Counted from the stretch's first letter, positions 25,377 through 59,084 are shown. The stretch is DNA of 64,000 bases from Escherichia coli (GCF_003790525.1 NZ_CP033635.1); one strand, 5' to 3'. Notes: generated by a model not told the origin, from the sequence alone. Program-made: numbers and translations.

Positions 25377-25395
25377 TAAATATCGTCGATATTTA
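25377..25395. promoter_or_regulatory. 19-bp palindrome in TRAP operon upstream region (candidate operator)
   Basis: TAAATATCG-T-CGATATTTA, perfect palindrome about a central base, in the AT-rich 312-bp region upstream of the DctP-like gene. Confidence 0.4.
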
Positions 25396-25477
25396 TTCAG
25401 TAAGAAATATATTTTTGCCGAAGTTAATTAACGGGGGGTAAAAGAAGTGATTAATGCGCCCGCAGGCGCATTAATGA

Positions 25478-39987: not shown

Positions 39988-40004
39988 TTAAGATTATTCC
40001 GCTG

Positions 40005-40045
40005 GCGGGTCGATTTATTTACGTAAATCGGCCCGCTTTCTTTTT
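40005..40045 (+). terminator. Rho-independent terminator after speA
   Basis: 13-bp imperfect stem GCGGGTCGATTTA / TAAATCGGCCCGC followed by TTTCTTTTT. Confidence 0.7.
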
Positions 40046-40132
40046 ATATATTCTTAAAAATAATTTAGCTGCTTTTCTTATTAAATAATCCCCCTACAAT
40101 CGCTGCATTAATTAAATGCAGAGGGAACGGTT

Positions 40133-40864
40133 ATGAAAAAATGGAAAGTACGTAGCGCGTTGATAGCATTAGCCGTGCTGCTGGCCGGTTGTTCCAGTAA
40201 TGCGCAGTATAATAGCAGTGCATCAGGCAATGTCGGCACCGCCTGGGGTGGGGATGTGCACTCATCGGTTCAGGGCGTATCTGCTGAACGAGTCTGGCGC
40301 GATCCGGCAGAGATGATCGTTATTAGTTATTCGACTACTGTTCCTTCGGGCTACGACCGCGTTTATAGCATTCGTATTAACGAACTTGAATATGCTATTC
40401 GCGATGGTAATTTTAATTCTCTACCTATTACGCGGGTTTATGATTCGTCAAATAATGAACCACGCTATATTGTCCATGCCAGAGTAGGAATGAATTATCA
40501 ATTATATGTCCGCAATTACAGTCGTAATACCAACTACGAGATCGTTGCTACGGTTGATGGCCTGGATGTGCTGAACGGCAAGCAAGGTTCGCTGAATAAC
40601 AACGGCTATATTGTGAATGCCGGAGATTCGTTAGCGATTAAAGGATTCCGCAAAGATAAACATACCGAAGCGGCTTTTCAGTTCGCCAACGTTGTTGATT
40701 CCTACGCAGCCAATTCGGCGCAAGGCGATGTGCGTAATACCGGTGTAATCGGCTTTGCCGCCTTTGAATTACAAGGCCCGGCGCAAAACGCGCTGCCGCC
40801 GTGCTCTGGACAAGCCTTTCCGGCGGACAACAATGGCTATGCGCCGCCACCGTGTCGGAAATAG
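40133..40864 (+). CDS. Hypothetical lipoprotein (243 aa), not recalled in K-12 at this site
   Basis: Signal peptide with lipobox LLAGCSS; Asn/Tyr-rich; no recognised domain; own terminator downstream. Confidence 0.6.
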   Translation: MKKWKVRSALIALAVLLAGCSSNAQYNSSASGNVGTAWGGDVHSSVQGVSAERVWRDPAEMIVISYSTTVPSGYDRVYSIRINELEYAIRDGNFNSLPITRVYDSSNNEPRYIVHARVGMNYQLYVRNYSRNTNYEIVATVDGLDVLNGKQGSLNNNGYIVNAGDSLAIKGFRKDKHTEAAFQFANVVDSYAANSAQGDVRNTGVIGFAAFELQGPAQNALPPCSGQAFPADNNGYAPPPCRK

Positions 40865-40931
40865 CAACCTCGCTTGATGCCTCGTCCATTTAAGGCGATA
40901 ATTAGCGCAAACTTGTGTTTCGCAAATCCAA

Positions 40932-41920: not shown

Positions 41921-42070
41921 GTCATCTGCCTGGTTGAATTTTTTACACAGTCCCTTGTCTGGCACAAGGGACTTATCATTTAAAACCTATCCTGTTAATT
42001 AAGTCATCTTTACCCTGACTGCTGTTTTTTTAATGGATTGTTATTATCACGTTTTTAATGGAATAAATAG

Positions 42071-43633
42071 ATGGAACGCACTCTTCCCTGGAAGCCCCTT
42101 CTTTGTTTGTTATTTCTTTTATCAACTGGCTGCGATAGAGCAGAAAAACAGAAAATTGCCGCACAGCTGCAACAAGACAAAGAAGCTATTTCCTCTGTCG
42201 TCAAAAAGAGTTATCGCGCATTATGTGGCCCTGAGTTTGTCACCAGCACAGATTCGCACGATCGCCTTGCGGAAATGCAGCAAGTATTTACACCTGCTTT
42301 AATGGAGCCTGTACTGAAATACTGGCAAGAGTCACCCAAAACGTGTAAACGACGTTTCCCCAGTTATAGCGATCCTTCAGCGACCTTCGTCGAAGGCGAC
42401 AAGGCGCAGATTGGTGCTTTTTTTGGTCACCAATCTTATATTGATATTCCAATGGAGTTAATCCGGCAAGGGGATGGTAAATGGAAGATTACTGCGATTG
42501 ATTTTGCATCGTTACACGAGTTTGAAAAAAACGGTCGGGTTACTGGTGAGGTGCAGAAGCAAATAGATTTGCTTAAAAAACGCTCATTCAAGCAACATAG
42601 GGATTCCCCTGTGCTGACGAGGACCGCGCCAGAGCGGGTCAGTAAGTCCCCTTTGACATCGATGGAGCAAACAGTTACGGAGCAAGACTCTTCCTGGCTG
42701 GATGTCTTACTGACAATAGGCAAATATGCCCTTTATCTGGTAGCGATAATACTTATTCTCGCCTTGGTGGCTGTTTTGTGGATTGGTTATGGCCTGGTGT
42801 TCGCCGGACATCGCCTTTTCAAAGCATCCTGTAGAGATCCCTCAATTCAAAAAATTCCTGTGGCTGAACGTTGGGCAATGGCAGTCGGCGCGCCTTATGC
42901 CATTGCGGGTAACAATCACTGGGCGCGACGAGTCGTTAATGATGATTCCGTGGAAGCAGAGAATGATTGCAAAAATGAAGTGGAGTCCCTTGCTGACATG
43001 TGGGGCGTCTTTGATCGGGATTCGTTACTTGAGCAACTCTTAGCTTTGTTTGTAGCAGGACATCGTCCAGTTTATGAAGAACAGATCAAAAACGATAGCG
43101 AAATGCCGGATGCTGAATATCGCGCGTTCGCTCAGCAATTAGCTCAGAACGCGAAATCAAGTAGCGAAGCGAAAGAGCGTTTGTGGCAGCTACAGATGGT
43201 CAGAAAAAATCGACGTAAAATATGCGATATAGATTTTTGTGCCTGGGATATGGTGCGTTTTGTCATGCTATGTAATAGCGGGGCGCAAGTGGGATACATT
43301 ACCCAGCGTGAAATGGTCGATTTTTCGATGCTGGCAGCCAGACGCGTACAGCAACATTACAGAAGCTGGCGCGAATTGGCCGGGCATTTTTTGCTGGCCC
43401 GTTGGTACTGGAAAGCAACGGATAAACGGCACCTGATTACCCATATTCTTTTTAAGAAAGCCATTACATCTTTATTAGAAGAGCAGGGGAGTCCGTGGCG
43501 TACTTTACCCTGGGATACTCCATTACCTGAAGGAACAGAGACGGCTTTTGCCTGGGCTTGTGGCGTAAGCACTGCCGATGTCGTAGAGGTGCGATCGGAT
43601 ACACCAGATAAAGCAATCTACGAAGCGAATTGA
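42071..43633 (+). CDS. Hypothetical lipoprotein/membrane protein (520 aa) with possible DUF1266-like C-terminal domain
   Basis: Lipobox LLSTGC; one central TM helix (LYLVAIILILALVAVLWIGYGLVFAG); C-terminal AWDMVR...GYITQRE...YRSWREL pattern reminiscent of DUF1266 (YbeU/YbeR-like), from memory. Confidence 0.55.
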   Translation: MERTLPWKPLLCLLFLLSTGCDRAEKQKIAAQLQQDKEAISSVVKKSYRALCGPEFVTSTDSHDRLAEMQQVFTPALMEPVLKYWQESPKTCKRRFPSYSDPSATFVEGDKAQIGAFFGHQSYIDIPMELIRQGDGKWKITAIDFASLHEFEKNGRVTGEVQKQIDLLKKRSFKQHRDSPVLTRTAPERVSKSPLTSMEQTVTEQDSSWLDVLLTIGKYALYLVAIILILALVAVLWIGYGLVFAGHRLFKASCRDPSIQKIPVAERWAMAVGAPYAIAGNNHWARRVVNDDSVEAENDCKNEVESLADMWGVFDRDSLLEQLLALFVAGHRPVYEEQIKNDSEMPDAEYRAFAQQLAQNAKSSSEAKERLWQLQMVRKNRRKICDIDFCAWDMVRFVMLCNSGAQVGYITQREMVDFSMLAARRVQQHYRSWRELAGHFLLARWYWKATDKRHLITHILFKKAITSLLEEQGSPWRTLPWDTPLPEGTETAFAWACGVSTADVVEVRSDTPDKAIYEAN

Positions 43634-43718
43634 TGCCCCAAATGATTGAGCTTGTTTAATGACTGTGACCGGCTCTGAATGAAAATTTCTCCGACATTCC
43701 TGTCGGAGAAATATGAAA

Positions 43719-44477
43719 TCACTTTATCCCATCCGCGCTCATACGATCGCGAATATGCTGGGCGCGTTCGGCGGATGCTGGATGGTCGTCAAACATTGAG
43801 CTTTGACGGCCTTCTTCCAGTTTTGCCAGTTTTTCAAAGCTGGTGGCAAGACCTGCCGGGCTGATGCCGCGTTGGCGCAGAAGATCGTAAGAATAATCAT
43901 CGGCTTCTGCTTCCTGGCGCTGGGAGAATTGCGAATTAACTAATTTCTCGCCCAGATCACCGAGTTGTGATTGAGATAAACTGCCGACAATCCCGCCCGC
44001 AGAGGCCGCAGCTACTCGTACGGCATTTGTACCAAGTGCCACCTGCATCCCTTTCTTCACATGGCCTAACGCTACGTGCCCCATCTCGTGACCGATCACC
44101 GCTTCGACTTCGTTATCTGTCATCATATCCATCAGCCCGCTATAGACGCGGATACAGCCGTTAGCCATTGCAAAGGCGTTCACATCCTTCGCCATATACA
44201 CTTTGTAATTCACCGGCTGACCGTTGATATTGTTGCCTAGCGCATTGGCAATAGTTGTCAGACGTTTAGCGTATTCGCTATTGGTTGGCGCAATCGTCGC
44301 CTTGCTGTCCATCTCCTGACATGCCTGATCGCTCAGGGTTTTCACCTGCGCATCACTCAAACTGTAAGCCTGAAAAGCTTCCGCTCCTGATGAGAGCAGT
44401 CCGTTGGAGTCCATATTCTGGCAACCGGTCAGTACCGTTGCCACGCTCATTGCTACCAATAAGGCGCGAATTTTCAT
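43719..44477 (-). CDS. loiP: Metalloprotease LoiP (M48 family lipoprotein)
   Basis: 252 aa from MKIRALLVAMSVATVLTGC; HEMGH zinc motif. Confidence 0.9.
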   Translation of the reverse strand: MKIRALLVAMSVATVLTGCQNMDSNGLLSSGAEAFQAYSLSDAQVKTLSDQACQEMDSKATIAPTNSEYAKRLTTIANALGNNINGQPVNYKVYMAKDVNAFAMANGCIRVYSGLMDMMTDNEVEAVIGHEMGHVALGHVKKGMQVALGTNAVRVAAASAGGIVGSLSQSQLGDLGEKLVNSQFSQRQEAEADDYSYDLLRQRGISPAGLATSFEKLAKLEEGRQSSMFDDHPASAERAQHIRDRMSADGIK

Positions 44478-44754
44478 GTTTTCTCTTCCGCACAAGGTCA
44501 GGATTATTCTAAAAATGCGCCGTTTGCAGGTGAATCGACGCTCAGTCTCAGTATAAGGAAAAGCGCAGCGGACGGGCGAGCAGATTGCGCAACATGCGAG
44601 CATGATCCAGAGATTTCTGAAGCGGCAAAAGGATGTTCCATGTACATGACGCGCGGCTTGCGGTAAATTGTTGGCAAATTTTCCGGCGTAGCCCAAAACG
44701 CGCTGTCGTCAAGTCGTTAAGGGCGTGCCCTTCATCATCCGATCTGGAGTCAAA

Positions 44755-46746
44755 ATGTCCTCACGTAAAGAGCTTGCCAATGCTATTCGTGCGCTGAGCA
44801 TGGACGCAGTACAGAAAGCCAAATCCGGTCACCCGGGTGCCCCTATGGGTATGGCTGACATTGCCGAAGTCCTGTGGCGTGATTTCCTGAAACACAACCC
44901 GCAGAATCCGTCCTGGGCTGACCGTGACCGCTTCGTGCTGTCCAACGGCCACGGCTCCATGCTGATCTACAGCCTGCTGCACCTCACCGGTTACGATCTG
45001 CCGATGGAAGAACTGAAAAACTTCCGTCAACTGCATTCCAAAACGCCGGGCCACCCGGAAGTGGGCTACACCGCAGGTGTGGAAACCACTACTGGTCCGC
45101 TGGGTCAGGGTATTGCCAACGCAGTCGGTATGGCGATTGCAGAAAAAACGCTGGCGGCGCAGTTTAACCGTCCGGGCCACGACATTGTCGACCACTACAC
45201 CTACGCCTTCATGGGTGACGGCTGCATGATGGAAGGCATCTCCCACGAAGTTTGCTCTCTGGCGGGTACGCTGAAGCTGGGTAAACTGATTGCGTTCTAC
45301 GATGACAACGGTATCTCTATCGATGGTCACGTTGAAGGCTGGTTCACCGACGACACCGCAATGCGTTTCGAAGCTTACGGCTGGCACGTTATTCGCGGCA
45401 TCGACGGTCATGACGCGGCATCCATCAAACGCGCAGTAGAAGAAGCGCGCGCAGTGACTGACAAACCGTCCCTGCTGATGTGCAAAACCATCATCGGTTT
45501 CGGTTCACCGAACAAAGCCGGTACCCACGACTCCCACGGTGCGCCGCTGGGCGACGCTGAAATTGCCCTTACCCGCGAACAGCTGGGCTGGAAATATGCA
45601 CCGTTCGAAATCCCGTCTGAAATCTATGCTCAGTGGGATGCGAAAGAAGCAGGCCAGGCGAAAGAATCCGCATGGAACGAGAAATTCGCTGCTTACGCGA
45701 AAGCTTATCCGCAGGAAGCCGCTGAATTTACCCGCCGTATGAAAGGCGAAATGCCGTCTGACTTCGATGCCAAAGCGAAAGAATTCATCGCTAAACTGCA
45801 GGCTAATCCGGCGAAAATCGCCAGCCGTAAAGCGTCTCAGAATGCGATTGAAGCGTTCGGCCCGCTGTTGCCGGAATTCCTCGGCGGCTCTGCTGACCTG
45901 GCACCGTCTAACCTGACCCTGTGGTCTGGTTCTAAAGCAATCAACGAAGATGCTGCGGGTAACTACATCCACTACGGTGTTCGCGAGTTCGGTATGACCG
46001 CGATTGCTAACGGTATCTCCCTGCACGGTGGCTTCCTGCCGTACACCTCCACCTTCCTGATGTTCGTGGAATACGCACGTAACGCCGTACGTATGGCTGC
46101 GCTGATGAAACAGCGTCAGGTGATGGTTTACACCCACGACTCCATCGGTCTGGGCGAAGATGGCCCGACTCACCAGCCGGTTGAGCAGGTCGCTTCACTG
46201 CGCGTGACCCCGAACATGTCCACATGGCGTCCGTGTGACCAGGTTGAATCCGCGGTCGCGTGGAAATACGGCGTTGAGCGTCAGGACGGCCCGACTGCGC
46301 TTATCCTCTCCCGTCAGAACCTGGCGCAGCAGGAACGTACTGAAGAGCAGCTGGCAAACATCGCGCGCGGTGGTTATGTGCTGAAAGACTGTGCCGGTCA
46401 GCCGGAACTGATCTTCATCGCGACCGGTTCTGAAGTTGAACTGGCGGTTGCTGCCTACGAAAAACTGACTGCTGAAGGCGTGAAAGCGCGCGTGGTTTCC
46501 ATGCCGTCTACCGACGCGTTCGACAAGCAGGATGCGGCTTACCGTGAGTCTGTACTGCCGAAAGCGGTTACTGCACGCGTTGCGGTGGAAGCGGGTATTG
46601 CTGACTACTGGTACAAGTATGTTGGCCTGAACGGTGCTATCGTCGGCATGACCACCTTCGGTGAATCTGCTCCGGCAGAGCTGCTGTTTGAAGAGTTCGG
46701 CTTCACCGTTGACAACGTTGTTGCGAAAGCAAAAGAACTGCTGTAA
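44755..46746 (+). CDS. tktA: Transketolase 1
   Basis: 663 aa from [20 protein letters not shown]... Confidence 0.95.
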
Positions 46747-46767
46747 TCGGTAAGATACTTTGTGAGA

Positions 46768-46794
46768 AGGGCCGCGAAAGCGGCCCTTTTTTTA
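46768..46794 (+). terminator. Rho-independent terminator after tktA
   Basis: Stem AGGGCCGC / GCGGCCCT, loop GAAA, then T7. Confidence 0.8.
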
Positions 46795-47700
46795 CTTAGT
46801 AGAGATAAACGGAACTGTGCTGCCGGGGATCATGGTATCGGGCAGTTTACCGTCCCAACGTTCGGCAGTGGTGAGGGCTACAAGTCCGGGATTATCCCGC
46901 AGAGCTTCACCGCGCAGGCGGATCGCTTCTGCTTCAGCCGCACTTTTTAAACGAATAGTTTCAGCCTCTGCCGCGCCTCTTACGCGAATAGTTTCCGCTT
47001 CTGCTTTAGCTGCCGCCAGTTTACTGTCTGCTTCTGCCTGGGCCTGAGTTACCGCTATTTGCGCCTGGATTTTCTCTGTTTCCAGATTTTGCTTACGCGT
47101 GGCAATGGCGACTTCTGCTTTCATTCGGTCTTCAATCGACTTTTCATAAGCGTCAGAAAAATCAATATTTTCAATCTGGACCCCGTCAATTACCACTGGC
47201 CCAACAACGGCTTTGCGCATGGCATTTTGCAGATCCTGAACCAGTTTTGTACGATCCTGTACAGCGCTGATGGCGGTATATTGGCCGAAAACGTTCTCCA
47301 GTTGAGTTGGCAACTGACGGACAATCAGACGATCTTTTAATGCTTCAATGGTGTTGTAGGTGGTATAAACCGCGCCTGCTTCTGAAGGTTTAATGTGGAA
47401 GCTGACTGATACTGTCATTTGTGCCGGTTGCTGGTCGCGGCTGTAGGCCTGTAATCCCTGATAGACCACAGCCTGATTACGCGTGGAAATTTTCTCCACG
47501 CTTTCCATAAACGGGATCTTAAAACCCAGACCCGGCTCGGCAACTTTTACGATTTTTCCGTAGCGCAGCAAAATGCCGCGTTCACCTTCATTAACGGTGT
47601 AATACGAGAGAAATGGCAGCACAACCACGGCAAGCACGCCAATGGCGATAGCAAGAGATTTTTGTGGGCGAAATGAGGTTAATGAAACAGGTGCTTTCAT
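46792..47700 (-). CDS. SPFH/band-7 (HflC/prohibitin-like) membrane protein
   Basis: 302 aa; N-terminal TM segment, band-7 core, Ala/Glu-rich coiled-coil tail; stop codon lies in the T-tract of the tktA terminator. Confidence 0.7.
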   Translation of the reverse strand: MKAPVSLTSFRPQKSLAIAIGVLAVVVLPFLSYYTVNEGERGILLRYGKIVKVAEPGLGFKIPFMESVEKISTRNQAVVYQGLQAYSRDQQPAQMTVSVSFHIKPSEAGAVYTTYNTIEALKDRLIVRQLPTQLENVFGQYTAISAVQDRTKLVQDLQNAMRKAVVGPVVIDGVQIENIDFSDAYEKSIEDRMKAEVAIATRKQNLETEKIQAQIAVTQAQAEADSKLAAAKAEAETIRVRGAAEAETIRLKSAAEAEAIRLRGEALRDNPGLVALTTAERWDGKLPDTMIPGSTVPFISTK

Positions 47701-48077
47701 GACAATCTTCCTTGAGTAAAGTGTGGGAATATGTCACATGAGATGAGGAGAAAACAGCCGACAGGTGAGAATTCAGAATCTATAAAGGGGTATAGCGAAA
47801 AAACATTGCTTTAAAAAAGTATGTTTTCGGACATTCAATAAATAAATGGCGATATGCATCACAAATACAACAATAATCAAAATGTTGATTTTGTGATAAA
47901 CGTAACAAATACAAAGTTGACTTTAAAAATATCAACTTCATGTTGTTATTATTTAAGGTTTTATTATTTTTGTTCATGGGGTTTTTCTTCTCGCGTACCC
48001 AATTGCTTTCATTAAACCGCACGAGTATTTTATTTTTACCGCCGGACGGTACCCTAAAAATAAAATAAGGATAATTT

Positions 48078-48521
48078 ATGCGGCTTAGTGATTATTTTCC
48101 AGAATCATCAATCTCAGTTATACATTCAGCAAAAGATTGGCAGGAAGCTATCGATTTCTCGATGGTATCATTGCTGGATAAAAACTATATCAGCGAGAAT
48201 TACATTCAGGCAATTAAAGATTCCACCATTAACAATGGCCCTTATTATATTCTCGCACCAGGCGTGGCAATGCCTCATGCGCGACCGGAATGTGGGGCGC
48301 TTAATACCGGGATGTCTTTGACATTACTTGAACAAGGTGTTTATTTTCCGGGGAATGACGAACCTATTAAATTACTCATCGGACTCTCTGCTGCCGATGC
48401 CGATTCGCACATTGGCGCTATTCAGGCGTTAAGTGAATTACTGTGCGAAGAAGAAATACTCGAACAACTCTTAACAGCATCATCAGAAAAACAATTAGCG
48501 GACATTATCAGCCGCGGATAA
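48078..48521 (+). CDS. cmtB: PTS mannitol-type EIIA (cryptic)
   Basis: 147 aa from MRLSDYFPESSISVIHSAKDWQ... Confidence 0.9.
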   Translation: MRLSDYFPESSISVIHSAKDWQEAIDFSMVSLLDKNYISENYIQAIKDSTINNGPYYILAPGVAMPHARPECGALNTGMSLTLLEQGVYFPGNDEPIKLLIGLSAADADSHIGAIQALSELLCEEEILEQLLTASSEKQLADIISRG

Positions 48522-48548
48522 TTACTCTCTCCTCTACAGGATAATATT

Positions 48549-49937
48549 ATGGAAAACAAGTCTGCTCGTGCAAAGGTCCAGGCTTTTGGGGGCTTTTTGA
48601 CTGCAATGGTCATCCCCAATATTGGTGCTTTTATTGCCTGGGGTTTTATTACTGCATTATTTATTCCTACTGGTTGGCTGCCTAACGAACATTTCGCCAA
48701 AATTGTCGGCCCGATGATTACCTATTTATTGCCCGTGATGATTGGTTCTACCGGTGGCCATTTAGTCGGCGGTAAACGCGGCGCGGTCATGGGCGGAATA
48801 GGTACTATTGGTGTGATCGTCGGCGCAGAGATCCCGATGTTCCTTGGCTCAATGATTATGGGGCCGCTCGGTGGGCTGGTCATAAAATATGTCGATAAGG
48901 CACTGGAAAAACGCATACCTGCTGGTTTTGAGATGGTTATCAATAACTTCTCATTAGGTATCGCGGGGATGCTCCTTTGTCTGCTGGGTTTTGAAGTGAT
49001 CGGCCCGGCGGTGTTAATTGCCAATACTTTCGTCAAAGAGTGTATTGAGGCGCTGGTACATGCGGGTTATCTGCCTCTGCTGTCAGTCATCAATGAACCG
49101 GCGAAAGTGCTTTTCCTTAATAATGCGATCGATCAGGGCGTCTATTATCCGCTGGGAATGCAACAGGCTTCGGTTAACGGTAAATCCATCTTCTTTATGG
49201 TGGCCTCTAACCCAGGTCCGGGCCTGGGGCTGCTGCTGGCGTTTACCTTGTTTGGTAAAGGGATGAGTAAACGTTCTGCGCCCGGGGCGATGATTATTCA
49301 CTTCCTCGGTGGGATCCACGAACTGTATTTCCCGTATGTGCTGATGAAGCCGCTGACCATTATTGCCATGATTGCAGGCGGTATGTCTGGCACCTGGATA
49401 TTTAACTTACTGGACGGTGGTCTGGTGGCTGGCCCAAGTCCGGGGTCTATCTTTGCGTACCTGGCACTGACGCCGAAAGGCTCGTTCCTGGCGACAATTG
49501 CTGGTGTTACGGTAGGTACCCTGGTGTCCTTTGCTATCACTTCGCTGATACTGAAGATGGAAAAAACGGTGGAAACGGAGAGCGAAGATGAGTTTGCTCA
49601 GTCAGCCAATGCGGTTAAGGCGATGAAACAAGAGGGTGCATTCTCGCTAAGCAGAGTTAAGCGTATCGCCTTTGTTTGCGATGCGGGGATGGGCTCCAGT
49701 GCGATGGGCGCGACGACCTTCCGTAAACGCCTGGAAAAAGCGGGGCTGCCAATTGAAGTAAAACATTACGCGATAGAAAACGTGCCTGCGGATGCGGATA
49801 TCGTCGTTACTCATGCCAGTCTGGAAGGGCGCGTGAAACGTGTGACGGATAAACCGCTGATATTGATTAATAACTATATTGGCGATCCAAAACTCGACAC
49901 TTTATTTAATCAATTAACCGCCGAACATAAACACTGA
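48549..49937 (+). CDS. cmtA: PTS mannitol-type EIICB (cryptic)
   Basis: 462 aa; EIIC membrane domain plus C-terminal EIIB. Confidence 0.9.
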   Translation: MENKSARAKVQAFGGFLTAMVIPNIGAFIAWGFITALFIPTGWLPNEHFAKIVGPMITYLLPVMIGSTGGHLVGGKRGAVMGGIGTIGVIVGAEIPMFLGSMIMGPLGGLVIKYVDKALEKRIPAGFEMVINNFSLGIAGMLLCLLGFEVIGPAVLIANTFVKECIEALVHAGYLPLLSVINEPAKVLFLNNAIDQGVYYPLGMQQASVNGKSIFFMVASNPGPGLGLLLAFTLFGKGMSKRSAPGAMIIHFLGGIHELYFPYVLMKPLTIIAMIAGGMSGTWIFNLLDGGLVAGPSPGSIFAYLALTPKGSFLATIAGVTVGTLVSFAITSLILKMEKTVETESEDEFAQSANAVKAMKQEGAFSLSRVKRIAFVCDAGMGSSAMGATTFRKRLEKAGLPIEVKHYAIENVPADADIVVTHASLEGRVKRVTDKPLILINNYIGDPKLDTLFNQLTAEHKH

Positions 49938-49951
49938 TTACAGAGGTAAAA

Positions 49952-51229
49952 ATGAAAACCAAAGTTGCTGCTATTTATGGCAAGCGGGATGTCCGTCTGC
50001 GCGAATTTGAACTGCCAGAAATTACCGATAATGAACTGTTAGTGAGTGTAATTTCTGACAGCGTCTGTTTATCGACCTGGAAAGCGGCGTTGCTTGGTAG
50101 TGAACATAAACGCGTACCCGACGATTTAGAAAATCATCCGGTCATTACCGGGCATGAATGTGCCGGGGTTATTGTTGAAGTGGGTAAAAATCTCACCGAC
50201 AAATATAAAAAAGGCCAGCGTTTTGTATTGCAACCGGCGATGGGGTTACCAAGCGGATATTCAGCGGGCTACAGCTACGAATATTTTGGCGGTAACGCCA
50301 CCTATATGATTATTCCCGAGATCGCCATTAACCTGGGCTGCGTATTACCCTATCACGGCTCTTATTTTGCTGCGGCGTCGCTGGCAGAGCCTATGTGCTG
50401 CATTATTGGCGCTTATCATGCCAATTATCACACTACGCAATATGTTTATGAGCATCGCATGGGCGTCAAACCTGGCGGCAATATTGCGCTGCTGGCGTGT
50501 GCAGGTCCGATGGGCATTGGCGCTATCGATTACGCCATTAACGGCGGTATACAACCGTCGCGGGTGGTGGTGGTCGATATCGACGACAAACGGCTGGCGC
50601 AGGTAGAGAAGCTGCTGCCGGTGGAACTGGCGGCCAGTAAAGGCATTGAGCTGGTGTATGTGAATACCAAAGGGATGAGCGATCCGGTACAGATGCTGCG
50701 GGCGCTGACGGATGATGCCGGATTTGATGACGTATTTGTCTATGCAGCGGTGCCTTCAGTCGTCGAGATGGCTGATGAATTACTGGCGGAAGATGGCTGC
50801 ATGAACTTCTTTGCCGGGCCAACGGATAAAAACTTCAAAGTGCCGTTTAATTTCTACAACGTCCATTACAACAGCACGCACGTCGTCGGTACATCTGGCG
50901 GTTCAACGGACGACATGAAAGAGGCGATTACCCTTAGCGCCACGGGACAGTTACAGCCGTCGTTTATGGTGACCCATATTGGTGGCCTTGATGCGGTGCC
51001 AGAAACCGTGCTCAATCTGCCGGATATCCCAGGCGGTAAAAAACTCATTTATAACGGCGTGACCATGCCGCTCACTGCCATTGCCGATTTTGCCGAAAAA
51101 GGCAAAACCGATCCGCTGTTTAAAGAGTTGGCGCGGCTGGTTGAGGAAACGCACGGCATCTGGAATGAGCAGGCCGAGAAATATCTGCTGGCGCAATTTG
51201 GCGTTGATATCGGGGAGGCCGCGCAATGA
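49952..51229 (+). CDS. yggP: Zn-dependent alcohol/polyol dehydrogenase-like protein
   Basis: 425 aa; MDR superfamily. Confidence 0.85.
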   Translation: MKTKVAAIYGKRDVRLREFELPEITDNELLVSVISDSVCLSTWKAALLGSEHKRVPDDLENHPVITGHECAGVIVEVGKNLTDKYKKGQRFVLQPAMGLPSGYSAGYSYEYFGGNATYMIIPEIAINLGCVLPYHGSYFAAASLAEPMCCIIGAYHANYHTTQYVYEHRMGVKPGGNIALLACAGPMGIGAIDYAINGGIQPSRVVVVDIDDKRLAQVEKLLPVELAASKGIELVYVNTKGMSDPVQMLRALTDDAGFDDVFVYAAVPSVVEMADELLAEDGCMNFFAGPTDKNFKVPFNFYNVHYNSTHVVGTSGGSTDDMKEAITLSATGQLQPSFMVTHIGGLDAVPETVLNLPDIPGGKKLIYNGVTMPLTAIADFAEKGKTDPLFKELARLVEETHGIWNEQAEKYLLAQFGVDIGEAAQ

Positions 51230-52191
51230 TGTCCCTGGCGTGGCCATTATTTCGCGTTACGGAACAGGCAGCGTTGGCTGCCTGGCCGCAAATCGGATGT
51301 GGCGACAAAAATAAAATTGATGGCCTGGCGGTCACCGCGATGCGCCAGGCATTAAACGACGTCGCTTTTCGTGGGCGAGTGGTTATCGGCGAGGGAGAGA
51401 TTGACCATGCGCCGATGCTGTGGATTGGCGAAGAGGTGGGCAAAGGCGATGGGCCAGAAGTCGATATCGCGGTTGATCCGATTGAAGGCACCAGGATGGT
51501 GGCGATGGGGCAGAGCAATGCGCTGGCAGTCATGGCCTTCGCCCCACGAGGCAGCCTGCTACACGCTCCCGATATGTATATGAAAAAACTGGTTGTTAAT
51601 CGGCTGGCGGCGGGCGCGATTGATCTGTCTTTGCCACTGGTGGACAACCTGCGCAACGTGGCGAAAGCGTTAGGCAAACCGCTGGACAAGCTGCGCATGG
51701 TTACGCTGGATAAACCGCGCCTGAGTGCCGCGATTGAAGAAGCAACACAGCTGGGCGTGAAGGTTTTCGCTCTGCCGGATGGCGATGTCGCCGCCAGCGT
51801 GCTGACCTGCTGGCAGGATAATCCTTACGATGTGATGTACACCATCGGCGGTGCGCCAGAAGGCGTGATTTCTGCCTGTGCCGTTAAAGCATTAGGCGGG
51901 GATATGCAGGCCGAGCTGATTGACTTTTGTCAGGCTAAAGGGGATTACACGGAAAATCGGCAGATTGCAGAGCAGGAGCGCAAGCGTTGCAAGGCAATGG
52001 GCGTTGACGTTAACCGTGTGTACTCGCTCGATGAACTGGTGAGGGGGAACGATATCCTCTTTAGCGCTACGGGCGTGACGGGTGGCGAGTTGGTGAACGG
52101 TATCCAACAGACGGCGAATGGGGTGCGGACGCAGACATTACTGATCGGCGGCGCGGACCAAACGTGTAATATAATAGACTCCCTGCATTGA
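51226..52191 (+). CDS. yggF: Fructose-1,6-bisphosphatase class II (GlpX-like)
   Basis: 321 aa; overlaps yggP stop (ATGA). Confidence 0.85.
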   Translation: MMSLAWPLFRVTEQAALAAWPQIGCGDKNKIDGLAVTAMRQALNDVAFRGRVVIGEGEIDHAPMLWIGEEVGKGDGPEVDIAVDPIEGTRMVAMGQSNALAVMAFAPRGSLLHAPDMYMKKLVVNRLAAGAIDLSLPLVDNLRNVAKALGKPLDKLRMVTLDKPRLSAAIEEATQLGVKVFALPDGDVAASVLTCWQDNPYDVMYTIGGAPEGVISACAVKALGGDMQAELIDFCQAKGDYTENRQIAEQERKRCKAMGVDVNRVYSLDELVRGNDILFSATGVTGGELVNGIQQTANGVRTQTLLIGGADQTCNIIDSLH

Positions 52192-52212
52192 TGGTGATCT
52201 ATCGGAAGACGA

Positions 52213-52722
52213 ATGGCGACGCTGACAGAAGATGATGTGCTTGAGCAACTGGATGCACAGGACAATTTATTTTCATTTATGAAAACTGCGCATTCTATTT
52301 TGCTCCAGGGGATACGCCAGTTTCTGCCGTCGCTGTTTGTCGATAACGATGAAGAGATCGTCGAATATGCAGTGAAGCCGTTACTCGCCCAAAGCGGCCC
52401 GCTTGACGATATTGATGTTGCGCTGCGTTTGATTTATGCGCTGGGGAAAATGGATAAATGGCTGTACGCCGATATCACGCATTTTTCCCAGTTCTGGCAT
52501 TACCTGAACGAACAGGATGAAATGCCCGGATTTGCCGATGACATGACCTGGGATTTTATCAGCAACGTCAATAGTATAACCCGCAATGCGACGCTCTATG
52601 ACGCATTGAAAGCGATGAAGTTCGCCGATTTCGCCGTCTGGTCAGAGGCGCGTTTTAGCGGGATGGTCAAAACGGCGCTGACGCTGGCAGTAACGACCAC
52701 CTTAAAGGAATTAACGCCGTGA
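52213..52722 (+). CDS. yggD: MtlR-like regulator
   Basis: 169 aa. Confidence 0.8.
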   Translation: MATLTEDDVLEQLDAQDNLFSFMKTAHSILLQGIRQFLPSLFVDNDEEIVEYAVKPLLAQSGPLDDIDVALRLIYALGKMDKWLYADITHFSQFWHYLNEQDEMPGFADDMTWDFISNVNSITRNATLYDALKAMKFADFAVWSEARFSGMVKTALTLAVTTTLKELTP

Positions 52723-53432
52723 AAATTGAATTAACGGTGAATGGGCTGAAGATACAGGCACAGTACCAGAACGAAGAGATTGAAAATGTACATAAACCGT
52801 TGCTGCACATGTTGGCGGCCTTACAGACGGTAAATCCGCAGCGGCGTACGGTGGTTTTTCTTTGCGCTCCGCCGGGGACGGGTAAATCTACCCTAACCAC
52901 CTTCTGGGAATATATCGCGCAACAAGACCCGGAACTGCCCGCTATTCAGACGCTACCGATGGATGGTTTTCATCATTACAATAGCTGGCTGGATGCGCAT
53001 CAATTGCGCCCCTTCAAAGGCGCACCAGAGACATTTGACGTTGCGAAACTGGCGGAAAATCTGCGCCAGGTCGTGGAAGGGGATTGTACGTGGCCGCAGT
53101 ACGATCGACAAAAGCATGATCCTGTTGAAGATGCGTTGCACGTTACCGCACCACTCGTCATCGTCGAAGGAAACTGGTTGTTGCTGGACGACGAGAAGTG
53201 GCGCCAGCTTGCGCAATTTTGTGATTTCTCGATCTTTATCAAAGCTCCCGCATCTGCGTTGCGGGAGCGTCTGGTGGGGCGCAAGCTGGCGGGAGGGTTA
53301 TCGCTGGCAGACGCAGAAGCCTTTTATGACCGTACCGACGGGCCGAATGTTCGCCGGGTGCTGGAAGAGAGTCTGCCTGCAAATTTGACCTTAATGATGA
53401 CCGCTACGGGTGAATATCGTCTGATGGATTAA
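52719..53432 (+). CDS. yggC: P-loop kinase-like protein
   Basis: 237 aa; Walker A APPGTGKST. Confidence 0.8.
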   Translation: MKIELTVNGLKIQAQYQNEEIENVHKPLLHMLAALQTVNPQRRTVVFLCAPPGTGKSTLTTFWEYIAQQDPELPAIQTLPMDGFHHYNSWLDAHQLRPFKGAPETFDVAKLAENLRQVVEGDCTWPQYDRQKHDPVEDALHVTAPLVIVEGNWLLLDDEKWRQLAQFCDFSIFIKAPASALRERLVGRKLAGGLSLADAEAFYDRTDGPNVRRVLEESLPANLTLMMTATGEYRLMD

Positions 53433-54114
53433 CGTTCCTGATTACACCATCTTCCAGTCGCACCACACGAGAGAAATGACGCCGGGTAAATGCGGCGTCA
53501 TGACTGATTGCTACGACGCTCGTGCCTCGCTGGCGGCACTTTTCCAGCCAACTTTCAAACACGCTCATCCAATTTTCGTCAAAATCCCGACTCGGCTCGT
53601 CCAGCAGCAATAGCGGCGGAGAGAGTGCTTCCAGGCAGGCGACGGCGACCATCCGTCGCTGCGCACTATGCAGATCCAGCGGATGCGCGCTGGCAGTGTC
53701 TGCTAACTGACAGCATTGCAGGGCAGCATTGGTACGTTGAGTGATTTCATCCGCCGGGCATTTTTGCAGTTTCAAACCAAATGCGATCTCGTCAGCGACG
53801 GTGCTGTGAAAAAGCTGGTTTTCCGCTTCCTGAAACAGTACGCCAATCTTTGCCGCGCGCTGGCGGTTTTTCAGGTTTTTCATCGCCTGTTGTTGCAGCA
53901 TAACCGTACCGGCTGTGGGCGTAAGAAGACCTGCCATTACTCGTAACAGCGTCGATTTTCCCGCGCCATTGTCGCCGGTCAGCGCCAACCATTCACCTTG
54001 TTTGAGTTGCAGAGAAATGTCGCAAAGACAATCCGTTGCCGCGTCAGGCCAGCGATAAGTTATCTGATTTAACGTTAACATAGTGGCTGGAGCGCTCCGT
54101 TTTGCAATTGCCAC
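53404..54114 (-). CDS. ECF/CbiO-type ABC ATPase subunit (second ATPase)
   Basis: 236 aa; Walker A GDNGAGKST; LLLLDEP Walker B; overlaps preceding ATPase gene. Confidence 0.75.
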   Translation of the reverse strand: MAIAKRSAPATMLTLNQITYRWPDAATDCLCDISLQLKQGEWLALTGDNGAGKSTLLRVMAGLLTPTAGTVMLQQQAMKNLKNRQRAAKIGVLFQEAENQLFHSTVADEIAFGLKLQKCPADEITQRTNAALQCCQLADTASAHPLDLHSAQRRMVAVACLEALSPPLLLLDEPSRDFDENWMSVFESWLEKCRQRGTSVVAISHDAAFTRRHFSRVVRLEDGVIRNVNPSDDIHP

Positions 54115-54758
54115 GCTTGCTGGCAGTAGTTCAGGAAAGGTGTACGATGACGTTCAAAAAGAATAATCAGCGAACCACGTTCAAGCGCCCAGTGTTGTAA
54201 GCGCTGCAACAGCATTTCGCAGGCCTGCGGCGTCAGGCGGCTAAAGGCTTCATCAAGAATTAAGAGCTTTGGCTGCATCGCGATGGCGCAGGCGATGACC
54301 ACACGCTGTGTCTCTCCACCGGAGAGTGTTGCCGGGTGACGATGGCGCAACGGCTGGCACTCGGTCAGAGTCAGGGCGGCATCAATCCGCGCCATAATCT
54401 CCTCTTCAGCAAGACACAGATTTTCTGGCCCAAAGGCAACTTTTTCTTCCACGCTAAAGGTACAGCCGGAGAGCTGCAAATAGGGCGATTGCTGAACGAG
54501 CTGGATGGTGGCGGATTGTTCATTAAGCGGGATATGCCCAATGGGCGTACCGAGAAGCGTCCCCGTGCCGGTTATCTCTCCTGGCAGAAAGTCCGGATAC
54601 CAGCCCGCCATCAGCTGTGCCAGCGTACTTTTGCCACTGCCGTTGTCACCAAAGATGGCGACCATCCCCGGTTTGACATAGTGAAAGTCATAACAGAACG
54701 GAGGATGCGTTGAGTGTGTCGGGCAATAGCGAAACTGTTCTAACGTAACCATATCCAC
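54075..54758 (-). CDS. ECF/CbiO-type ABC ATPase subunit (first ATPase)
   Basis: 227 aa; Walker A GDNGSGKST; signature LSGGE; LILDEA Walker B. Confidence 0.75.
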   Translation of the reverse strand: MDMVTLEQFRYCPTHSTHPPFCYDFHYVKPGMVAIFGDNGSGKSTLAQLMAGWYPDFLPGEITGTGTLLGTPIGHIPLNEQSATIQLVQQSPYLQLSGCTFSVEEKVAFGPENLCLAEEEIMARIDAALTLTECQPLRHRHPATLSGGETQRVVIACAIAMQPKLLILDEAFSRLTPQACEMLLQRLQHWALERGSLIILFERHRTPFLNYCQQAWQLQNGALQPLC

Positions 54759-55447
54759 GCTCCGAATTCAGCCAGCATTAGCAAGATCATGGCGTAACGT
54801 GCTACGCGTTGTAGGGTGCTATCGGCTGGTGCCCATAACGTAGTGCGCCTATTGTTGATTCGAAATGCCCGCATATCCAGCGCCGCACCACGGACAGCCA
54901 GATCGTTAAGCGCATTGTGTGTTAGCGGAATAATTAGCGCGGGCATCGCGCGTAAACGCTGATACCAGCCTTCATCAAGCGGCACGCCGCGGGCGCGCTG
55001 CGCTTCATGAATAATCGCTAATTGCCGTTTTAACTGCTCAACGACCAACAACGGCCCGGCGAACAGATAAGCGACGCCCGGCGGCAGGCGAGAAGCAAAC
55101 AAAGCGCGGATAAAACGTTGCACTGGGACGTACTGCATCCACAACTGCGAGGTTGAAACAATCGCCAGAATCCGCAACCAGAGCGTAATAGCATGCGTCC
55201 ACCGTTCTGGCGAGCGTGGCGTGCCGCTTAGCCATTCTATCAGCCAGCCACCGTGTACCAGCCACAGTCCAGCCCCCAGCGAGAACATCAGCCAGACGAC
55301 ATATTTTGCCCGCCGCCGCGTGGCCTTTAGCGCAATAAGGCAGAAAAAGGTCGCCGCGCTATAGACTGGCAATATTGTCTGTGTGGGCAGGATAAGCGTG
55401 GTGTAGGCCGCCAGCGCCCACAGCGTTAATGAGGTAAACGGATGCAT
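54740..55447 (-). CDS. ECF transporter transmembrane component (EcfT/CbiQ-like)
   Basis: 235 aa polytopic; ends with Arg-containing ALDMRAF segment of the kind seen in T components; lies between S-like and ATPase genes. Confidence 0.65.
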   Translation of the reverse strand: MHPFTSLTLWALAAYTTLILPTQTILPVYSAATFFCLIALKATRRRAKYVVWLMFSLGAGLWLVHGGWLIEWLSGTPRSPERWTHAITLWLRILAIVSTSQLWMQYVPVQRFIRALFASRLPPGVAYLFAGPLLVVEQLKRQLAIIHEAQRARGVPLDEGWYQRLRAMPALIIPLTHNALNDLAVRGAALDMRAFRINNRRTTLWAPADSTLQRVARYAMILLMLAEFGAWIWLR

Positions 55448-56026
55448 TTAGCGCACGGCTGCCATTGCCGGAAAATGGCGCGTGGTGCGAATCGGCAGCT
55501 GACGCAGTAAAAGCCAGACAATCACCGCTGTAAGAATTTTATCGACCAGGTTTGCGCCTATCACCGTAATCGCCACCGACTCCACCAGGTTTTGCCCCAT
55601 AGAGTGCATCCAGGCAACGAACAAATCGGCTCCGCTACCGGTGACACCGCCGAACAGCGCAGTACGCAGCGGTACAGCGACGACCGTTACCGCAAGCGTA
55701 ATAATCACGCCGCTGACAACGACTTTTGGCAGGGTGCGGAACCAACCCGCTCGCGCCAGCCAACCGGCGACCAGGCCGATGACCATCGCCACGGGCGCAA
55801 ATGCGGCGGCGATCGGGTCGGTCAGCAATCCCCAGAGTAAATTGGTCAGTAAGCCGGTCAGCATCCCGATCACCGGACCAAGCAGTACCGCGCTAATAAG
55901 TGTGCCGACGGAGTCGAGAAATATAGGTAATTTGACCATGCTGGCCAGTTGCCCGCCGATCATATTGATGGCGATAGATATAACGATCAACACCAGCGCC
56001 TGACTGGAAAAGTGGCGACGCGCCAT
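55448..56026 (-). CDS. ECF transporter substrate-capture (S) component-like membrane protein
   Basis: Start at 56026 (GAGAGG RBS) gives 192 aa, about six hydrophobic helices, Gly-rich; substrate not inferable. Confidence 0.6.
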   Translation of the reverse strand: MARRHFSSQALVLIVISIAINMIGGQLASMVKLPIFLDSVGTLISAVLLGPVIGMLTGLLTNLLWGLLTDPIAAAFAPVAMVIGLVAGWLARAGWFRTLPKVVVSGVIITLAVTVVAVPLRTALFGGVTGSGADLFVAWMHSMGQNLVESVAITVIGANLVDKILTAVIVWLLLRQLPIRTTRHFPAMAAVR

Positions 56027-56048
56027 AAGAAAACCTCTCTGAAAATAG

Positions 56049-56480
56049 TTAGTTAACGGGGGAAATATGCAACTCGTCGTAACCAGAAAGCGCGCAAGGC
56101 TGGCGGCTAAACGCCAGTTCCTCAAGGCAGCCGATCACCAGTTCAAGCGTGGTCCGCACGGTACAGCCGGGCATCATATGACCGCCAAGCATCGTGCCGT
56201 GTGGATCGGAAACGCAGAGATGAAGATGTTCACCACTCTGTTCCAGCGTGCCGTTCAATGCGATGACTTCGAACTTACCGCTTAGTAGGGCAGTGTTTTC
56301 TTGCCCGGCATAGCGTAAGGCGACGTCAGTCAGACTGCCGGTACAACCTGCAATCCACGCGGCGTGAAGTTGTTGTTGCTGCGCGAAGGCGCGTAATTGG
56401 GAGAGAACTTCCTGCCCGGGGAGCAGGCGCAGCGCGTAAAAACGTGCGGAGGAAGAATATGGGTAGGGCAATGTCATCAT
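56049..56480 (-). CDS. DUF296 / PPC-domain protein
   Basis: 143 aa, first gene of the ECF-like operon; size and motif pattern resemble PPC-domain proteins (from memory). Confidence 0.5.
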   Translation of the reverse strand: MMTLPYPYSSSARFYALRLLPGQEVLSQLRAFAQQQQLHAAWIAGCTGSLTDVALRYAGQENTALLSGKFEVIALNGTLEQSGEHLHLCVSDPHGTMLGGHMMPGCTVRTTLELVIGCLEELAFSRQPCALSGYDELHISPVN

Positions 56481-56851
56481 TGGAGTACTCCGAAACTCGG
56501 ACGTATTGCGGATAATATCGACGCTGCATCAGTCATATTCTGATATAAGTCAGGGTTTGTGACGGCACAACGAAAAGATTTTGCTACGCTTATTCGTGAT
56601 TCTGCAAAGTGGAATAAATTCCACAGGGGCGGGGCTGAAAACGTGACGTAAGTCAGATAATTGTCTTCTTTGACTGGACAATCATTCCTTTTATTCCACG
56701 TTTCGCTTATCCTAGCTGAAGCGTTTCAGTCGATTAAATGTTCGACAATTAACCAATCAGTCGCAGTTTGCGACAGGTAAGGTTTCCCCGGACGATTTGC
56801 TGGATTACTCTGTCTGGCAAATTTGCTCAGGGAAAACCTTGCAGGAGATCT

Positions 56852-57871
56852 ATGACCGTACGCGTAGCGATAAATGGCTTCGGTCGCATCGGGCGTAATG
56901 TGGTTCGTGCTTTGTATGAATCCGGACGCCGGGCGGAAATTACCGTGGTGGCAATCAACGAACTGGCGGATGCTGCGGGCATGGCGCATTTGTTGAAATA
57001 TGACACCAGCCATGGCCGTTTTGCATGGGAAGTACGACAGGAACGCGATCAACTTTTTGTTGGTGATGACGCCATCCGCGTATTGCATGAACGTTCACTG
57101 CAATCGCTCCCCTGGCGTGAACTTGGCGTTGATGTAGTCCTCGACTGCACCGGCGTATATGGCTCCCGTGAGCATGGCGAAGCGCATATTGCCGCCGGGG
57201 CCAAAAAAGTGCTCTTTTCACATCCTGGCAGTAACGATCTCGACGCGACCGTTGTTTACGGCGTCAATCAGGATCAACTTCGTGCGGAACACCGCATCGT
57301 TTCTAACGCTTCCTGTACCACGAATTGCATAATTCCCGTCATCAAATTGTTAGATGATGCGTACGGTATTGAGTCCGGCACTGTGACCACAATTCACTCC
57401 GCCATGCACGATCAACAGGTTATTGATGCATACCATCCTGACCTGCGTCGCACTCGGGCAGCCAGCCAGTCGATCATTCCGGTCGATACTAAACTGGCCG
57501 CCGGTATCACACGATTTTTTCCGCAATTTAACGATCGCTTTGAAGCGATTGCGGTACGTGTGCCAACCATAAATGTGACGGCAATCGATTTAAGCGTGAC
57601 GGTGAAGAAACCTGTAAAAGCCAATGAAGTCAACCTGTTGCTGCAAAAAGCAGCACAAGGTGCATTTCATGGTATAGTTGACTATACGGAATTGCCGTTG
57701 GTCTCTGTAGATTTTAACCACGATCCGCACAGTGCCATTGTCGATGGCACCCAAACCCGGGTCAGTGGCGCACACCTGATCAAAACGTTGGTCTGGTGCG
57801 ATAACGAATGGGGCTTTGCTAACCGAATGCTCGACACGACGTTAGCTATGGCTACTGTTGCTTTCAGGTAA
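56852..57871 (+). CDS. epd: D-erythrose-4-phosphate dehydrogenase
   Basis: 339 aa from [17 protein letters not shown]... Confidence 0.95.
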
Positions 57872-57920
57872 GACGCAAGCAGCGTCTGCAAAACTTTTAG
57901 AATCAACGAGAGGATTCACC

Positions 57921-59084
57921 ATGTCTGTAATTAAGATGACCGATCTGGATCTTGCTGGGAAACGTGTATTTATCCGTGCGGATCTGAACGTACCAGTAAA
58001 AGACGGGAAAGTAACCAGCGATGCGCGTATCCGTGCTTCTCTGCCGACCATCGAACTGGCCCTGAAACAAGGCGCAAAAGTGATGGTAACTTCCCACCTG
58101 GGTCGTCCTACCGAAGGCGAGTACAACGAAGAATTCTCTCTGCTGCCGGTTGTTAACTACCTGAAAGACAAACTGTCTAACCCGGTTCGTCTGGTTAAAG
58201 ATTACCTCGACGGCGTTGACGTTGCTGAAGGTGAACTGGTTGTTCTGGAAAACGTTCGCTTCAACAAAGGCGAGAAGAAAGACGACGAAACCCTGTCCAA
58301 AAAATACGCTGCACTGTGTGACGTGTTCGTAATGGACGCATTCGGTACTGCTCACCGCGCGCAGGCTTCTACTCACGGTATCGGTAAATTCGCTGACGTT
58401 GCGTGCGCAGGCCCGCTGCTGGCAGCTGAACTGGACGCGCTGGGTAAAGCACTGAAAGAACCTGCTCGCCCGATGGTGGCTATCGTTGGTGGTTCTAAAG
58501 TATCTACCAAACTGACCGTTCTGGACTCCCTGTCTAAAATCGCTGACCAGCTGATTGTTGGTGGTGGTATCGCTAACACCTTTATTGCGGCACAAGGCCA
58601 CGATGTGGGTAAATCCCTGTACGAAGCTGATCTGGTTGACGAAGCAAAACGTCTGCTGACCACCTGCAACATCCCGGTTCCGTCTGATGTTCGTGTAGCA
58701 ACTGAGTTCTCTGAAACTGCACCGGCTACCCTGAAATCTGTTAACGATGTGAAAGCTGACGAGCAGATCCTGGATATCGGTGATGCTTCCGCTCAGGAAC
58801 TGGCTGAAATCCTGAAGAATGCGAAAACCATTTTGTGGAACGGTCCGGTTGGCGTGTTCGAATTCCCGAACTTCCGCAAAGGTACTGAAATCGTGGCTAA
58901 CGCTATCGCAGACAGCGAAGCGTTCTCCATCGCTGGCGGCGGCGACACTCTGGCAGCAATCGACCTGTTCGGCATTGCTGACAAAATCTCCTACATCTCC
59001 ACTGGCGGCGGCGCATTCCTCGAATTCGTGGAAGGTAAAGTACTGCCTGCAGTAGCGATGCTCGAAGAGCGCGCTAAGAAGTAA
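57921..59084 (+). CDS. pgk: Phosphoglycerate kinase
   Basis: 387 aa from [25 protein letters not shown]... Confidence 0.95.

Follow-up and report, generated by a model that had tools for sequence, protein, structure and literature searches.

In the stretch of Escherichia coli DNA analysed here (64,000 nucleotides of GCF_003790525.1, NZ_CP033635.1; hereafter the window), positions 48078-53432 of the plus strand carry the operon cmtB-cmtA-yggP-yggF-fumE(yggD)-yggC. The operon is intact, lies at its usual site between tktA and epd, and can be assigned to the core genome of the species with high confidence. The locus is already known and ordinary, and is of little importance as a feature of this window. 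The check removes the suspicion of gene decay at the cmt locus; the novelty that is left concerns the substrate of the operon, a gap (and a tractable one) in the carbohydrate metabolism of E. coli, and it belongs to the species as a whole and not to this window.

The operon opens with two genes for mannitol-type proteins of the phosphotransferase system (PTS): cmtB (48078-48521; 444 nt, 147 aa), encoding an enzyme IIA (EIIA), and cmtA (48549-49937; 1389 nt, 462 aa), encoding an enzyme IICB (EIICB). These are followed by yggP (49952-51229; 1278 nt, 425 aa), for a long, zinc-type medium-chain dehydrogenase/reductase (MDR), and yggF (51226-52191; 966 nt, 321 aa), for a paralogue of class II (GlpX-type) fructose-1,6-bisphosphatase (FBPase). 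The last two genes are fumE, also known as yggD (52213-52722; 510 nt, 169 aa), for an MtlR-fold protein annotated as fumarase E, and yggC (52719-53432; 714 nt, 237 aa), for a FrcK-like P-loop kinase of the PRK/uridine kinase/PanK superfamily. All six lie on the plus strand and in close succession. Three junctions have short spacers (27, 14 and 21 bp), and at the other two, start and stop codons overlap by 4 bp, with ATGA at the yggP/yggF junction and GTGA at the fumE/yggC junction, where yggC starts with GTG.

The initial annotation of this region had described the six genes as contiguous and apparently uninterrupted, and a listing of open reading frames returned six plus-strand frames at precisely the coordinates that it gave. 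E. coli K-12 MG1655 served as the reference for a gene-by-gene comparison by global alignment of both DNA and protein, which was also the check that the annotation had proposed. In all six genes, length and start codon equal those of MG1655; the alignments contain neither gaps nor internal stop codons, and no frameshift was found in any of the genes at either level. Nucleotide identity, from cmtB to yggC, is 99.5, 98.0, 96.2, 97.2, 97.3 and 85.7%, and the encoded proteins differ by 1, 2, 8, 3, 4 and 31 amino acids, respectively. Five of the genes share their stop codon with K-12, while yggC ends with TAA here and with TGA in K-12. One global alignment placed small paired gaps at 50709/50713, which were set aside as alignment noise, the gene lengths being equal. 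The gene order equals that of MG1655 (b2934-b2928), also between tktA and epd. The description of the locus as a known one was correct. Its likeness to K-12 holds for gene content, order, lengths and frames, but it does not extend to codons 161-237 of yggC or to the promoter region beyond 78 bp.

A 7.5-kb stretch around the operon found a match in 5425 of 5426 complete E. coli genomes, several of them at 100% identity. One such genome is NZ_CP098919.1, of a dog urinary isolate, which is 100% identical over the 7.5 kb. There, the Prokaryotic Genome Annotation Pipeline (PGAP) calls six complete coding sequences without a pseudogene flag, under the names cmtB, cmtA, yggP, 'glpX' (our yggF), fumE and nucleoside/nucleotide kinase family protein (our yggC). 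This intact annotation and the gapless, stop-free alignment to MG1655 together bear out the uninterrupted state of the operon. Of the 5426 genomes, 5388 (99.3%) contain the operon core (48000-53198) with a coverage of at least 80%, nearly always at 95-99% identity.

Conservation reaches well beyond the species. A scan with YggC as query and one genome per species returned 56 loci, and 43 of these have the full set of six genes in an unchanged order. The 43 loci span Escherichia, Citrobacter, Raoultella, Lelliottia, Enterobacter, Superficieibacter, Buttiauxella, Phytobacter, Providencia, Rahnella, Limnobaculum and Yersinia frederiksenii; the Budvicia locus lacks yggF only. The ratio of nonsynonymous to synonymous substitution rates (dN/dS, by the Nei-Gojobori method) is 0.02-0.29 in the comparison with K-12 and 0.03-0.16 in that with E. 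albertii; for Citrobacter and Buttiauxella it is 0.04-0.15, the last figures being limited to genes with an estimable dS. Such low ratios argue that the cluster is kept by purifying selection and is not decaying.

Apparent deletions in the cmt cluster were also observed in a few E. coli genomes, such as NZ_CP180597.1, NZ_AP027685.1 and NZ_CP048304.1; in the first of these, sequence from upstream of epd adjoins cmtA. The locus therefore seems to be dispensable in some lineages.

The gene that departs from this picture of uniform similarity to K-12 is yggC. In a sliding comparison, identity to K-12 is at least 96% up to about position 53198 and then falls suddenly to 65-72% over the last 235 nt, so that the YggC protein is 98.75% identical over codons 1-160 and 62% identical over codons 161-237. 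The divergent 3' segment (53199-53432, plus strand; codons ~161-237) is a different allele from that of K-12, with a dN of 0.34 and a saturated dS between the two tails. E. albertii, E. whittamii and two further Escherichia species have tails with 91-99% identity to the one found in the window, and a short contig resembling E. coli, binned in a Citrobacter metagenome-assembled genome (MAG), has one with 99%. Against the Citrobacter loci compared, the tail of the window shows 73-77% identity, and the N-terminal part of the gene 73-78%; the two parts are thus equally close to Citrobacter, as vertical descent would predict. The K-12 tail, on the other hand, is 56-64% identical to those of all genera compared, and 87% identical to that of one other Escherichia lineage (locus L009). 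We infer from these patterns that the window carries the common Escherichia type of yggC tail and that the K-12 tail is the outlier, i.e. the replaced one. The two tails, as old haplotypes, could differ in kinase properties.

The same end of the operon is where the right flank departs from K-12. According to the BLAST breakpoints, window positions 53364-56630 stand in for 132 bp of MG1655. Here lies a module of energy-coupling factor (ECF) transporter genes and a PCC-domain gene (53404-56480, minus strand), delimited by annotation and by Pfam/NCBIfam matches and situated outside the operon. It consists of two ECF ATPases (53404-54081 and 54075-54752), a T component (54740-55447), an S component (55448-56026), whose match to the CD3073-family model is below the cutoff of that model, and the PCC-domain gene (56049-56480), all on the minus strand. 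The module is convergent with yggC, and the 3' ends of the last ATPase gene and yggC overlap by 29 bp. An Rfam scan of 44000-58500 found no riboswitch or small RNA at gathering score, and none upstream of the ECF module.

The module occurs in 3318 of the 5426 E. coli genomes (61%) and is absent from MG1655; the K-12-type yggC tail and spacer occur in 2094. The two kinds of end add up to 5412 of 5426 genomes, which makes this a two-state polymorphism with K-12 in the minority state. The same yggC/module junction is found in E. albertii, E. whittamii, many Citrobacter, Silvania, Superficieibacter, Phytobacter and Atlantibacter. As the module sits at the same junction in those genera, it looks ancestral, and the word 'insertion' is apt only relative to K-12. 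The module is the majority state in E. coli and probably the ancestral one. Comparison of these genomes indicates that it is K-12 that carries a replacement, in which the module was removed and a diverged yggC tail swapped in, and that the present strain has the common Escherichia haplotype at the yggC end. The statement in the initial annotation that the operon is flanked on both sides by accessory insertions was right in that DNA beyond that of K-12 is present on both sides; its polarity fails on the right. K-12 is thus an atypical reference at this locus, with its ECF module lost and a foreign-looking yggC tail, and studies of yggC or of cmt regulation made in K-12 only may not represent the species. 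Across E. coli, the C-terminal alleles of yggC correlate with the presence (3318 genomes) or absence (2094) of the ECF module downstream.

On the left, window positions 46748-47999 stand in for 234 bp of the tktA-cmtB spacer of MG1655. They include a gene of the SPFH/Band 7 (prohibitin) family (46792-47700, minus strand; PF01145, 111.6 bits; annotated as 'prohibitin family protein'), which is divergent from cmtB and lies outside the operon. Of the 5426 E. coli genomes, 1816 (33%) carry this gene. It is absent from MG1655 and, among the loci fetched, is confined to Escherichia; it therefore looks like a genus-level gain.

The SPFH-cmtB spacer (47701-48077) is a 377-bp divergent control region. 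Its last 78 bp (48000-48077), the cmtB-proximal leader, are the only part common to K-12 at high identity; the remainder is ~48% identical and is a deeply diverged allele. The K-12 allele of the spacer is 98% identical to that of an Escherichia species without the SPFH gene (locus L008). Two CRP-like palindromes resembling TGTGA-N6-TCACA, 44 bp apart, are present at 47848-47863 and 47892-47907. Both fall in conserved alignment columns in all genera compared, Escherichia, Citrobacter, Raoultella, Lelliottia and Superficieibacter among them, and the spacer around them is highly diverged. These boxes may act in the control of cmtB here. In K-12, the cmtB promoter is activated by CRP (PMC3105977), uridine induces a cmtA-gfp fusion about six-fold, and deletion of cmtA raises the minimal inhibitory concentration (MIC) of tobramycin (PMC12412646). 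In the light of these reports, the term 'cryptic', which the initial annotation applied to the cluster, is a K-12 laboratory label. Control of the CytR type, suggested by uridine induction and by the tandem CRP-like boxes, was considered and dropped, as the alignment contains no conserved TGCAA-type operator between the boxes.

The family assignments initially given to the six proteins (EIIA, EIICB, dehydrogenase, class II FBPase, MtlR-like protein and P-loop kinase) were all upheld by Pfam and NCBIfam scans. CmtB scores 102 bits with PF00359 (cutoff 27) and 323.9 bits with the CmtB equivalog NF007358 (cutoff 192), and it matches, and nearly equals in sequence, the solved CmtB structure PDB 2OQ3 (E 3.5e-93). 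In the alignment with the IIA domain of MtlA, its His67 (GVAMPHARPE) falls on the histidine of IAVPHG, AMPHA against AVPHG being the motif of the phosphorylatable histidine. CmtA has EIIC and EIIB domains (PF02378, PF02302), shares 53% identity with residues 6-471 of MtlA, and lies just past the cutoffs of both TIGR00851 (479.6; cutoff 468.4) and NF011663 (593.4; cutoff 589). The IIB motif CDAGMGSSAMGA, with the phospho-cysteine Cys377, is kept, and this cysteine stands in FVCDAGMGSSAMGA, aligned to VACDAGMGSSAMGA of MtlA.

YggP contains ADH_N (PF08240, 37.2; cutoff 23.5) and ADH_zinc_N (PF00107, 63; cutoff 31.8) domains, and Cys38 and the motif G67-H68-E69, a putative catalytic-zinc signature read from the sequence, are present. 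It reaches none of the substrate-specific NCBIfam models compared (GatD, Tdh, IolM, L-idonate 5-dehydrogenase and others), the best being IolM with 87.5 against a cutoff of 450; the GatD model gives 21.4 bits against a cutoff of 550. The nearest solved structures are a ketose reductase and sorbitol dehydrogenases, with E values of only ~1e-9. Several databases label YggP homologues 'L-sorbose 1-phosphate reductase', and these labels are unverified. A search of the accessible literature library returned nothing on the substrate or enzymology of either YggP or YggC.

YggF belongs to family PF03320 and scores 586.6 with the glpX equivalog TIGR00330 (cutoff 259.3). It aligns over its full length with E. 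coli GlpX (1NI9; E 2.4e-112), with DPIEGT, DGDVA and GGAPEG conserved. FBPase activity has been reported for YggF of K-12 (Brown 2009, as cited in PMC8719807). FumE/YggD scores 178.6 bits with PF05068 (MtlR) over 164 of 165 model positions (cutoff 25.2) and 334.4 with the equivalog NF007455 (cutoff 167), and matches PDB 3C8G (E 5e-109). The initial name, 'MtlR-like regulator', can be taken as a label of the fold only. In K-12, no binding sites of YggD were observed by chromatin immunoprecipitation with exonuclease treatment (ChIP-exo; PMC8464067), and the protein has been reassigned as fumarase E, according to work cited within the same paper.

YggC scores 520.3 with its equivalog NF006742 (cutoff 402) and has a Walker A motif, A-PPGT-GKS, at residues 50-57 (A50-x4-G55-K56-S57). 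Its best solved relative is 3C8U, a structural-genomics deposit named 'fructokinase' (E 8.5e-24). In a Lachnospiraceae MAG (locus L053, 10001-11656), a YggC-like P-loop kinase domain and a PfkB-family carbohydrate kinase are fused in one protein of 551 aa.

Homologues of these proteins are linked in much more distant bacteria. YggP homologues occur at 65-68% identity in Aliivibrio/Vibrio and in Clostridia. In Aliivibrio fischeri (locus L066, 5962-11349) the gene order is EIIA, mannitol-type EIICB, YggP, an MtlR-fold protein, a YggC homologue and a PHP-domain phosphoesterase, and on two Clostridia contigs it is a PRD regulator, EIIA, a YggC homologue, EIICB and YggP. The YggC homologues of both groups are 42-43% identical to YggC over the full length. 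The PHP-domain phosphoesterase of Aliivibrio occupies the place of yggF in enterobacteria and may be a non-orthologous stand-in for the phosphatase step. From this linkage we conclude that the conserved core consists of the PTS proteins, the dehydrogenase and the kinase, with a phosphatase whose family varies by lineage. Strong purifying selection, together with the linkage of these three functions across phyla, argues for a real substrate of the operon. Other distant yggC neighbourhoods, the Lachnospiraceae fusion aside, were uninformative as to function: the Alkalibacterium homologues lie near ecfAAT-truA, and in Pragia and Leminorella yggC follows mutY-yggX-mltC.

Based on these observations, we suggest a PTS route for a polyol that would pass through a doubly phosphorylated ketose. 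CmtB (EIIA, His67) would relay phosphate from HPr to CmtA (EIICB, Cys377), which would import and phosphorylate a hexitol-like polyol; mannitol itself probably enters mainly by another route. YggP would then oxidise the polyol phosphate to a ketose phosphate, and YggC, as a FrcK-like P-loop kinase, would add a second phosphate. The resulting ketose bisphosphate might either be cleaved by an aldolase or be trimmed by YggF to a ketose 6-phosphate. FumE/YggD would act as an accessory or regulatory partner, or else be the reported fumarase, and expression would depend on cAMP-CRP through the two conserved upstream CRP-like boxes. The clustering of EIIA, EIICB, YggP and YggC homologues in A. fischeri and Clostridia, the relationship of YggC to 3C8U, the fusion with PfkB and the CRP activation of the cmt promoter in K-12 all speak for this scheme, which, taken as a whole mechanism, we put forward as a tentative model with somewhat less than an even chance of being right throughout. 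It is possible, if doubtful, that the cmt operon is the E. coli copy of a widespread, uncharacterised PTS pathway (EIIA, mannitol-type EIICB, YggP-type MDR and YggC-type kinase) shared with Vibrionaceae and Clostridia. Such a pathway would handle a polyol other than mannitol by way of a ketose mono- and then bisphosphate, with a phosphatase step performed by YggF in enterics and by the PHP-domain protein in Aliivibrio.

Several points weigh against this reading of the locus. The order of the reactions is deduced from the families of the proteins and the linkage of their genes. With both a kinase and a bisphosphatase encoded in one operon, a futile cycle could result, and one of the two may use another substrate. 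YggP meets no substrate-specific model, and the name 'sorbose-1-phosphate reductase' is an unverified database label. The reported fumarase role of YggD/FumE fits a polyol route poorly. Scans for consensus promoters and terminators were at chance level, with counts at or below the shuffled expectation. Finally, the polarity of the yggC tail was argued from identity patterns, without a rooted tree.

The alternative that survives best is that cmt is a second, redundant system for mannitol uptake and catabolism, working like mtlADR. CmtA does pass the mannitol-specific EIIC model and is more than half identical to MtlA, CmtB passes the mannitol EIIA equivalog, and FumE has the MtlR fold. However, the cluster lacks a mannitol-1-phosphate 5-dehydrogenase of the MtlD type; in its place stands a dehydrogenase of the long MDR type, accompanied by a dedicated kinase and a bisphosphatase that would be superfluous to the mtl pathway; the kinase and the dehydrogenase, moreover, stay linked to the PTS genes across phyla. 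A mannitol-dependent phenotype of K-12 needs mtlA but not cmtA (PMC11656735). We therefore consider redundancy with mtl unlikely.

Another alternative would join the cmt operon and the ECF/PCC module, perhaps also the SPFH gene, in one larger functional island. In its favour, many genera keep the module directly next to yggC, 3' overlap included. Buttiauxella sp. B2 has it on the opposite side, upstream of cmtB. However, Leclercia has epd, the PCC and ECF genes and tktA without any cmt genes, and in E. kobei the module lies beside an unrelated PTS/mannosidase cluster. Conversely, K-12, Raoultella, Lelliottia, Buttiauxella and 39% of E. coli have the operon but not the module. The module is also transcribed convergently to the operon, the Rfam scan gave no riboswitch or other element that would connect them, and the ATPase pair near the Alkalibacterium yggC homologues belongs to a housekeeping ecfAAT-truA cluster. 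A common island is very unlikely, and the module was rejected as a part of the system on account of its occurrence without cmt genes in Leclercia and E. kobei; its association with the operon is positional. The tktA-epd interval can rather be viewed as a small hotspot, in which the SPFH gene, the cmt operon and the ECF module combine independently across enterobacteria.

The least credible alternative, that the cluster is a silent, strictly 'cryptic' relic kept by chance and heading towards pseudogenes, may appeal to the historical name 'cryptic mannitol', to the dependence of the K-12 mannitol phenotype on mtlA and to the few genomes with deletions, but it is highly improbable given six open frames with low dN/dS wherever dS could be estimated, a core that is near-universal in E. 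coli, the gene order kept at 43 species loci, a four-gene core that reaches Vibrionaceae and Clostridia, a promoter that is CRP-dependent and uridine-inducible, and the tobramycin phenotype of the cmtA deletion.

Elsewhere in the window, further differences from K-12 were observed. Synteny with K-12 ends past the tRNA-Phe gene pheV, where positions 1-10395 form a pheV-associated island with insertion sequence (IS) remnants and group 2 capsule genes (kpsF, kpsE, kpsD-like, kdsB/kpsU and kpsC/kpsS-like). A three-gene tripartite ATP-independent periplasmic (TRAP) transporter, comprising a substrate-binding protein and small and large permeases, lies at 22275-25477 between hemW and yggM and is absent from MG1655. 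Two more genes that K-12 lacks are found at 39988-40922, between speA and speB (a hypothetical protein of 243 aa), and at 41922-43720, between speB and loiP (a DUF1266 protein).

Among known systems, the nearest to the operon described here is naturally the cmt locus of K-12 MG1655. The two agree in the six genes, their order, strand relationship, lengths and start codons, in the tktA-epd site, and in a nucleotide identity of 96-99.5% over the first five genes and codons 1-160 of yggC. They differ in the yggC tail and stop codon and in the promoter region, and the K-12 locus has neither a facing SPFH gene nor an ECF/PCC module.

The mtlA-mtlD-mtlR system of E. coli likewise has a permease of the mannitol PTS family. 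CmtA is 53% identical to the IICB part of MtlA and CmtB 28% identical to its IIA part, the phospho-cysteine and phospho-histidine motifs are conserved, and FumE and MtlR share 36% identity over 105 aa. On the other hand, the cmt EIIA is a separate protein, the cmt dehydrogenase is a zinc MDR and not MtlD, and the cmt cluster has two enzymes in addition, a P-loop kinase and a GlpX-type bisphosphatase. In the mtl route MtlD alone suffices, unlike in the route proposed for cmt.

The sor pathway of Klebsiella and Lactobacillus offers a PTS-linked oxidoreductase acting on ketose 1-phosphate/hexitol phosphate (SorE, L-sorbose-1-phosphate reductase), to which YggP is likened via a database name and partly via the size of SorE. 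This resemblance is a lead. The sor system differs from cmt in that its PTS is of the mannose family and in that it has neither a YggC-type kinase nor a GlpX-type phosphatase.

The fructose route, FruBKA, is analogous to the proposed cmt route in that the PTS product, a ketose 1-phosphate, is phosphorylated again, to a 1,6-bisphosphate, by an operon-encoded kinase before glycolysis. The kinases themselves are of different kinds, FruK belonging to the PfkB family and YggC to the PRK/PanK-type P-loop proteins, and the fructose route needs no dehydrogenase or bisphosphatase.

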